Shown here: one piece after another, positions 62,696-63,803 of the stretch
Numbering within the stretch: position 1 is the first letter of the stretch
How the letters are laid out: each line of letters opens with the position of its first letter
DNA from: Heptranchias perlo
Taxonomy: Eukaryota
Assembly (NCBI RefSeq): GCF_035084215.1
Contig: NW_027139453.1
Coordinates: 8,866,001-8,930,000 of the forward strand
Direction: 5' to 3'
DNA length: 64,000 nt
Notes under the pieces: generated by a model
Databases searched by the model: none
The model's input: only the letters and a program-made list of their open reading frames with translations
What the model was told of the DNA's origin: nothing
Translations under genes and position numbers: made by a program

Positions 62696-62844
62696 AACTT
62701 TTCTCAGCCTCTTTCACTGATCACTCTTTTCTGATGGCGGAGGTTTTGTGGTTTTTGCGCCCTTTATTCCTCAACTCCCCCCCCAGCCCCCAAAGGTGGC
62801 CCGGAGCTTTTTGAAGCAGGTCGCGCCGTGTTCTTGACGCTGTG

Positions 62845-63142
62845 GTACTATCGCTAGCGCAGTAATAAACAGCTGTGTCACTGGGCTGAATTTGGGTCAG
62901 GTTAAGGTGGTAGGAATCGTCCCTGCCCCTGGCTGCAGACACTCGCCCTTCGAACCCTTTGGATATCTCGGAGCTGTCCGTCCGATATGCGGAGATGAGG
63001 AGCTCCAAGGCCAGATTTGGGGCCTGTCGATACCAGTAGGTTCTGGGATGTTCTTTGGGTACAAAACATGTCAAAATCACCGATCCCAATCTGTACCCGG
63101 TAAGGTATCTATGCTTTTGAATAATCCTTTCGGTCACAGCCT
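62845..63142 (-). CDS. TRBV: TRBV exon V9 (RIIQKH...TC...WYRQ...YYCASDS), no own leader found
   Basis: Open frame; strong acceptor TTTTGCAG; RSS CACAGCG 62838-62844 / 23 / TCAAAAAGC 62806-62814. Confidence 0.93.
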
Positions 63143-63506
63143 CTGCAAAAGACACGGATATTAATGGACATTTTCTCATGTTACATCCTCTTGAGAGATA
63201 TAGGCGAGAGGGGGAGAAAGAGAGGGTGGGAGACAGTGGGGAGAAAAGAAGAGAGTGAAGGAGAGAGAGGTGAGGGAGAGAGGGAGCGGGAGGGAGAGGG
63301 AGGCAGGGAGAGATAGATAGAGAGAGGGGAGAGATCGATCTCTCTATCTCTCTCCATCTATCCATTTATTTATCTATCTATATCTATCTCTCTAACTATC
63401 CAGCTATCTAGCTTGCTATCTATCTATCATTAGAACTAGTTGGAGGGTCATTTCCGAGACAGGCGGAGGTTTATGTTGCACAGATCAGCCCGAATGTGTC
63501 TCTGTG

Positions 63507-63803
63507 CATCACTGCAGGCACAGAAATACCGCGCCGTGTCGTTCGGCTGCACGCTCGATATCCTCAGATCGAAGGAATTGTCTGCAGTTTTCTTGGCAAA
63601 AAATCGCTCCGTGATCCCGTCTGACCTGCTCGGATCTCCTCCATGCACCGCCTGCAAGAGCAGCTCGAGTCCCAGACCGGAATACTGACGGTACCAGTAT
63701 ATGTAAGGATCAGTCCCGTGTTGGGTGCACGGAATAGTCACCGACTCCCTCTCTCTCACCGTCACATATTGCTGGGACTGGACGATCTCCTGACACTGGC
63801 CAA
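63507..63803 (-). CDS. TRBV: TRBV exon V10 (EIVQSQ...PC...WYRQ...YFCACSD); leader probably beyond window end
   Basis: Open frame; tandem GAG/AAG phase-1 acceptors; RSS CACAGAG 63500-63506 / 23 / ACATAAACC 63468-63476. Confidence 0.93.

Follow-up and report, generated by a model that had tools for sequence, protein, structure and literature searches.

How could a V segment be used that has neither a leader exon nor a promoter of its own? The question is raised by V9, an intact V exon packed closely behind its neighbour V10 in a TRB (T-cell receptor beta) locus of the sharpnose sevengill shark, Heptranchias perlo. The window, that is the whole stretch of DNA analysed, comprises 64,000 nucleotides (G000:C1286:8866001-8930000); positions above 64000 continue the window count.

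A leaderless V exon in a duplicated TRB locus

The locus was marked as TRB by a D-beta segment (9558..9569, minus strand) with a 12-RSS above and a 23-RSS below it. The J-beta cluster (1030..9100, minus strand) holds eight of the nine J-like matches of this locus, the ninth J and C-beta lying below the window, with the C-beta exon about 6 kb away. The V segments, with 23-RSSs on the minus strand, lie upstream of D-beta, the J cluster and C-beta, in a 12/23 arrangement. The C exon matched sawshark TCR-beta models at 67–70% and two RefSeq Heptranchias perlo models at 100%. The whole V-D-J-C locus is duplicated on the contig, with locus A in the window and locus B at ~4.90–4.98 Mb, 4 Mb apart; the protein of C exon 1 is identical between them, non-coding DNA has diverged by ~5%, and V content differs.

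Several further features of the locus were recorded. Inverted V11-family segments (plus strand), seven of them with a good 23-RSS, were found downstream of C-beta at G000:C1286:8679801-8708958 and 8815935-8816228, a position like that of mammalian TRBV30, but occupied by several segments. An extra C1-type Ig exon, also inverted (L030:4856-5176, plus strand, corresponding to G000:C1286:8820856-8821176) and present in locus B too, lies 4.6 kb after an inverted V and has a partial second copy; no J was found between that V and this exon, which showed ~36% to a mammalian C-beta and had its best PDB matches in Ig heavy constant domains and UrIg2. An open-frame V8-like exon at 58932-58654 lacks an RSS (at ≤3 mismatches) and a phase-1 acceptor in locus A, and its copy in locus B has an RSS. 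In locus A, a stop interrupts the J at 1442 close to its beginning; the copy in locus B is free of it.

V9 itself (62845..63142, minus strand) is a TCR-beta V exon of its own family. It scored as a V-set domain (V-set clusters at 0.95–0.96), has the canonical Cys, Trp and Tyr-x-Cys, and is open for 98 codons (63140-62847). The exon starts at 63142, behind a phase-1 CAG splice acceptor that together with its pyrimidine tract occupies 63143..63170. The earlier note had described an open frame, a strong phase-1 acceptor and a good 23-RSS. The frame, the CAG and the phase stood, and the CAG is better than the AAG of V10, but the tract proved merely average (13 pyrimidines in 20 positions, against 12/20 in V10 and 12–18/20 in other Vs), and the 23-RSS (62806..62844, minus strand; CACAGCG/TCAAAAAGC) has 1 + 2 mismatches to the consensus. 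This RSS is usable, if below the top class; its heptamer CACAGCG is also present at V4, which was seen rearranged.

The closest paralogue of V9 in the genome was V10, at 37% identity. V9 sits on a long branch in the tree, which left its fork with V10 open and did not place V9 as the sister of V10; V9 may or may not have originated by duplication of V10. Protein searches returned no close relatives elsewhere at near-full or greater length, and none above ~41% overall identity among the best 150 of 531 representatives; a V10 relative in Chiloscyllium punctatum reached 70% identity. DNA and protein searches of the genome gave at least two copies of V9, in loci A and B, and no leadered paralogue. 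The TCR-beta models retrieved by C-beta (two from sawshark, two from Heptranchias perlo) bear V families other than that of V9.

What V9 lacks of a functional TCR-beta V is a split leader and promoter of its own. The gap between the V10 nonamer and V9 measures 325 bp (63467-63143), compared with 0.9–11.9 kb for nine other pairs of adjacent Vs. This spacer (63143..63467, minus strand) is a GA-rich and then CT-rich simple repeat, a GATA/GAGA repeat in its first part and 91% pyrimidine over its bases 136–275, and contains no leader exon, D, J or cryptic RSS. The description of the gap as mostly microsatellite, devoid of leader and promoter, was borne out: when each of its seven ATGs and eight GTs was inspected, no exon of hydrophobic type running from ATG to GT emerged. 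Just one GT resembles a donor, namely that already pointed out at 63183-63184, and it would leave an intron of 42 nt. A crude scan with a list of promoter words found no CRE, ETS, TATA, GC or CCAAT word in the gap and at least one within 250 bp of all six real leaders checked. A scan for phase-1 hydrophobic exons across 17–92 kb gave leader candidates for V3, V4, V5, V6, V8, V10 and V11–V15, and none between V10 and V9. Leader introns inside the window measure 381–771 bp, in line with the 0.4–0.8 kb reported before, but the argument from space built on them failed: the leader introns of V12–V15 are short (144–247 bp), and size alone is therefore insufficient to exclude a leader in the gap. The predicted fold of the spacer (-68.5 kcal/mol) had no shuffle control and was not used as evidence.

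Two other candidates for the 5' end of V9 were rejected. Extended ORFs that cross the repeat in frame begin at ATGs that differ between loci A and B. Orphan leader-like exons at 66927, 70160, 77254 and 80105 (continued count) resemble the end of the V10 leader and have good donors, but as displaced V9 leaders they were discarded because they have no in-range start codon and because, in locus A as in locus B, they are found after more than one V11-family segment.

The V10 leader and RNA from the V10–V9 pair

V10 (exon 63507..63803, 23-RSS 63468..63506, both minus strand) has a leader intron of 966 bp, of which the 3' part (63804..64000, minus strand) lies inside the window. The leader exon, L10, which the earlier note had suggested seeking beyond 64000, was located ~800 bp outside the window at 64818-64770 (G000:C1286:8930770-8930818, minus strand). 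It consists of 16 codons plus one base, ends in phase 1 at a GTAAGT donor and shows no difference between loci A and B over its 49 bases. This predicted shared leader lies 1.6 kb from V9; joined to V9 in silico, it is in frame, with Glu at the junction, and the start of V9 has a short stretch in register with the end of V10's signal peptide.

RNA data were available as assembled contigs from three presumed RNA runs of one sample (X1, X2 and X3); assembled contigs lose rare forms, and a contig is not equivalent to a single molecule. X1 behaved as RNA, with the V5 intron uncovered and V4 spliced. In the control stretch, L4 was spliced to V4 in X1 and X2 and L5 to V5 in X2, and in X1 a V4 end continued into D-like and J letters. 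The behaviour of X1 and X2 is thus that of T-cell-containing RNA. In X2, L10 and V10 are spliced in an 812-base contig; the joint bridges 966 bases bounded by GT and AG, agrees with V10 without mismatch over 294 bases and uses the AAG acceptor at 63806-63804.

V9 was seen in germline form only, as an unspliced contig in X1 and as a 162-base piece over the RSS, the only cover of V9 in X2; V9 was uncovered in X3, and absence of cover was not counted as evidence. The X1 contig runs from the end of V10 through the spacer into V9, which is the read-through that a shared leader requires. No V9-DJ contig was seen among those listed for the three runs of this one sample, and the joints listed for these runs, which contained no rearranged V9 to show one, included no L10-V9 splice. 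Unspliced germline V9 would be expected whether V9 is used or is a relic, because it has no downstream donor. The proposal that the V10 leader is spliced onto V9 thus gained from phase, frame and RNA read-through, and from the signs of constraint described below; the splice itself was unseen, and the sole L10 splice among the joints listed goes to V10.

Joints to their own leader were seen for all three leadered Vs examined (V10, V5 and V4), which speaks against borrowing by V9. So does the V5–V4 pair, where one contig shows read-through from the upstream V but V4 is spliced to L4, an L5-V4 joint being absent among those listed. This X1 contig (window 31206-32568) extends from unrearranged V5, across the V5 RSS and the intergenic DNA, into L4, V4 in spliced form and a junction with DJ; either an upstream V was read through onto a rearranged allele, or the assembly graph produced a chimera. 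The V4 leader (window 31932-31886) has a stop at codon 2 in locus A, where the RNA alleles have Arg and V4 is expressed; in locus B, it is the V4 exon that carries a stop.

Three versions of the pair and the pattern of substitution in V9

The tight V10–V9 pair recurs in locus B, 4 Mb away, with a spacer of 324 bp that is 4% diverged and contains no leader. X1 represents a third version of V9, with 23 differences from locus A in ~500 bases; of those listed near V9, five are common to locus B. Its 914-base contig spans V9, RSS and acceptor without splicing (L025:262-766). Depth over V9 was flat at 26.4, which points to a single contig, and the same value returned at 933-1030, so that by depth arithmetic the contig reaches the 3' end of V10 with ~6 extra bases. 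The RSS heptamer and nonamer are unchanged in locus B and among the listed differences of X1, with three changes in the RSS spacer. The oddity is real and has been kept within the species in three versions. Simple repeats are error-prone, and 166 repeat bases were skipped in the read comparison, but a collapsed assembly that conceals a leader at the microsatellite, a possibility raised in the earlier note, is very improbable because separately assembled copies 4 Mb apart (325 and 324 bp) and the third version, in its X1 contig, agree closely in length.

Across loci A and B and X1, we scored 18 changes in V9, comprising 14 missense, 4 silent and no stops, with no indel in the exon; this count leaves aside a Glu/Asp change in the codon at the junction and three unlisted differences among the 23 of X1. 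At 14:4, the missense:silent ratio is as expected under neutrality (0.72:0.24), and 18 changes would include no stop with a probability of 0.42. The 14 missense changes were, however, unusually conservative, with a mean BLOSUM62 score of +0.79 versus an expected -0.55 (P 0.0013–0.002 under two nulls, one of which used pseudo-codons built from real non-coding differences), and P ranged from 0.0003 to 0.005 across four matrices and the two nulls. For A–B alone P was 0.0006–0.036; for X1 alone the signal was weak, at 0.03–0.07. In control comparisons of A versus B, P was 0.036 for the expressed V10, 0.038 for V8, 0.16 for V4 and 0.21 for V5, and 0.43 for V3, 0.72 for V11 and 0.85 for the RSS-less V7; the test was post hoc, picked after the changes had been seen, and is non-significant for the expressed V5 and V4. 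The V9 exon differs between A and B at 8 of 298 positions versus 306 of 5696 in non-coding DNA (Fisher P 0.044). At the RSS of V5, the X1 sequence is pieced together from A and B, and gene conversion between the loci could carry older alleles; the RNA alleles in general resemble mosaics of the two loci.

The conservative amino-acid changes suggest protein constraint on V9, although the missense:silent ratio is neutral. Since all three V9 versions are leaderless, this favours constraint after loss of the leader.

Predicted use of V9, alternatives and comparison with known systems

The reading that we favour, with some reserve, is that V9, having no leader exon of its own, likely borrows the promoter and leader of V10 after V9-DJ joining, through a splice that is predicted. 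Read-through from the V10 promoter ~2 kb upstream may open the V9 RSS to RAG, and V9 would then be joined to DJ. In RNA from the V10 promoter, L10 would be spliced directly to V9, and V10 would be skipped. On such an allele V10 would be an acceptor with no nearby donor and V9-DJ would have both an acceptor and the J donor; by general splicing rules, exon definition would favour V9. The reading frame of V10 meets a stop 20 codons beyond its end, and no in-phase donor with a U1 match of at least 5 of 9 places was found near that end. Molecules spliced to V10 would run into this stop and probably be degraded, so that only the V10-skipping splice would yield a chain from a V9-DJ allele. Usage of V9 is probably low.

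A bolder form of leader borrowing, about which we are doubtful, holds that V9 represents an ancient TCR-beta V family, preserved by selection, which has neither promoter nor leader and depends on its neighbour to function, as part of an obligate transcription unit of two Vs and one leader. Recombination might then decide which V receives the leader, and other sharks may possibly be alike, a suggestion that we make just as tentatively.

The most serious alternative, which we hold to be a real if lesser possibility, is that V9 is a relic that lost its promoter and leader by deletion, is open by chance, is transcribed only as germline read-through and contributes little or nothing to receptors. 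The simple repeat could, with similar caution, be the leftover 3' part of its intron: a CT-rich tract is also found ahead of the V11 acceptor, so that the tract of V9 resembles an intron remnant. The exclusively germline, unspliced V9 RNA, the neutral missense:silent ratio and the fair chance of staying open fit such a relic, as does a locus rich in decay products, which include broken V11-family copies, ATG-less orphan leaders and, in this allele, a V4 leader with a stop. Against it stand the conservative substitutions (P ~0.002) and the preservation of heptamer, nonamer and acceptor AG, with no exon indel, over three leaderless versions 3–5% apart.

An in-frame ATG at 63177..63179 (minus strand), 12 codons ahead of the V9 acceptor, had been overlooked in the earlier note. 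Starting from A of the ATG at 63179, it would give a weakly hydrophobic N-terminus of 12 residues. An intron-less mini-leader from this ATG, read from a cryptic transcription start in the repeat, is improbable. The ATG is in frame in loci A and B and unchanged among the listed X1 differences, with an A at -3 and an Ala-x-Ala motif at the end of the peptide; but its best 9-residue hydropathy is 1.82 (A) and 1.24 (B) versus 2.23–3.38 in six real leaders, an in-frame ATG in the V10 intron is similarly hydrophobic (1.78) and yet V10 uses L10, there is an ATG-stop 7 bases further upstream, and the scan showed no promoter word.

A tandem two-V chain of V10 and V9, comparable to NAR-TCR, is highly unlikely, and the earlier note had likewise seen no support for a double rearrangement: a leadered upstream V does stand tightly beside a leaderless downstream V, and RNA spans both, but no D, J or 12-RSS turned up between them with as many as 6 mismatches allowed, and the stop after V10 and the lack of an in-phase donor at its end stand in the way. 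A V10 without a J would, moreover, miss its last beta strand. What V10 and V9 share with shark NAR-TCR is their order within a shark TCR locus, a leadered V being followed downstream by one without a leader; the supporting V of NAR-TCR is reportedly leaderless (Criscitiello 2006). V10 and V9 differ from it in having no D or J between them, in being both TRB-type and in the single V domain predicted; V10 falls among TCR Vs rather than being an IgNAR-type V on a delta chain, and the locus ends in C-beta. NAR-TCR, the doubly rearranging TCR-delta, acquires its two V domains via two V(D)J joins (PMC5931798, PMC12227049, PMC3457774).

Leader borrowing is already known from mouse. Chou et al. (1987) are said to have been the first to report the mouse Vb5.1 leader on Vb8.2. 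As predicted for V9, the upstream leader of mouse TRBV12-2 (Vb5.1) joins the downstream V exon of TRBV13-2 (Vb8.2) within TRB, with the upstream V exon skipped, and L10 likewise lies upstream of V9 and agrees with it in phase and frame. The earlier note had cited this mouse case correctly: in the immgenT preprint, 46,029 of 69,248 TRBV13-2 transcripts bear the TRBV12-2 leader, there are also 'true' TRBV13-2 transcripts that begin with the TRBV13-2 leader, and events of this shared kind are few or absent beyond the TRBV12-2/TRBV13-2 families (bioRxiv 10.64898/2026.01.30.702900). In contrast to this optional sharing, V9 is leaderless and its borrowing would be obligate, the splice here being predicted. 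Human TRBV23-1, described as an ORF/pseudogene type that is missing its leader donor (PMC8740489), resembles V9 in having an intact V exon and RSS and in lacking a functional leader of its own; it differs in that its leader is present but mutated, whereas that of V9 is missing and a compatible one lies upstream. PMC8517844 and PMC7615758 served as general background only. The literature search found no description of a leaderless shark TRBV, although subscription papers and supplements could hold one.

If leader borrowing is false, V9 would be an ordinary relic in a fast-turning locus. If it is true, a V segment would stay functional without a promoter or leader of its own, and annotators would be warned that leaderless Vs classed as pseudogenes may be used. 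The pair would offer a natural setting in which to see whether read-through transcription is enough to open an RSS to RAG, and in which exon definition at rearranged V exons could be put to the test. Leader sharing would then occur in a cartilaginous fish and not in mouse alone.
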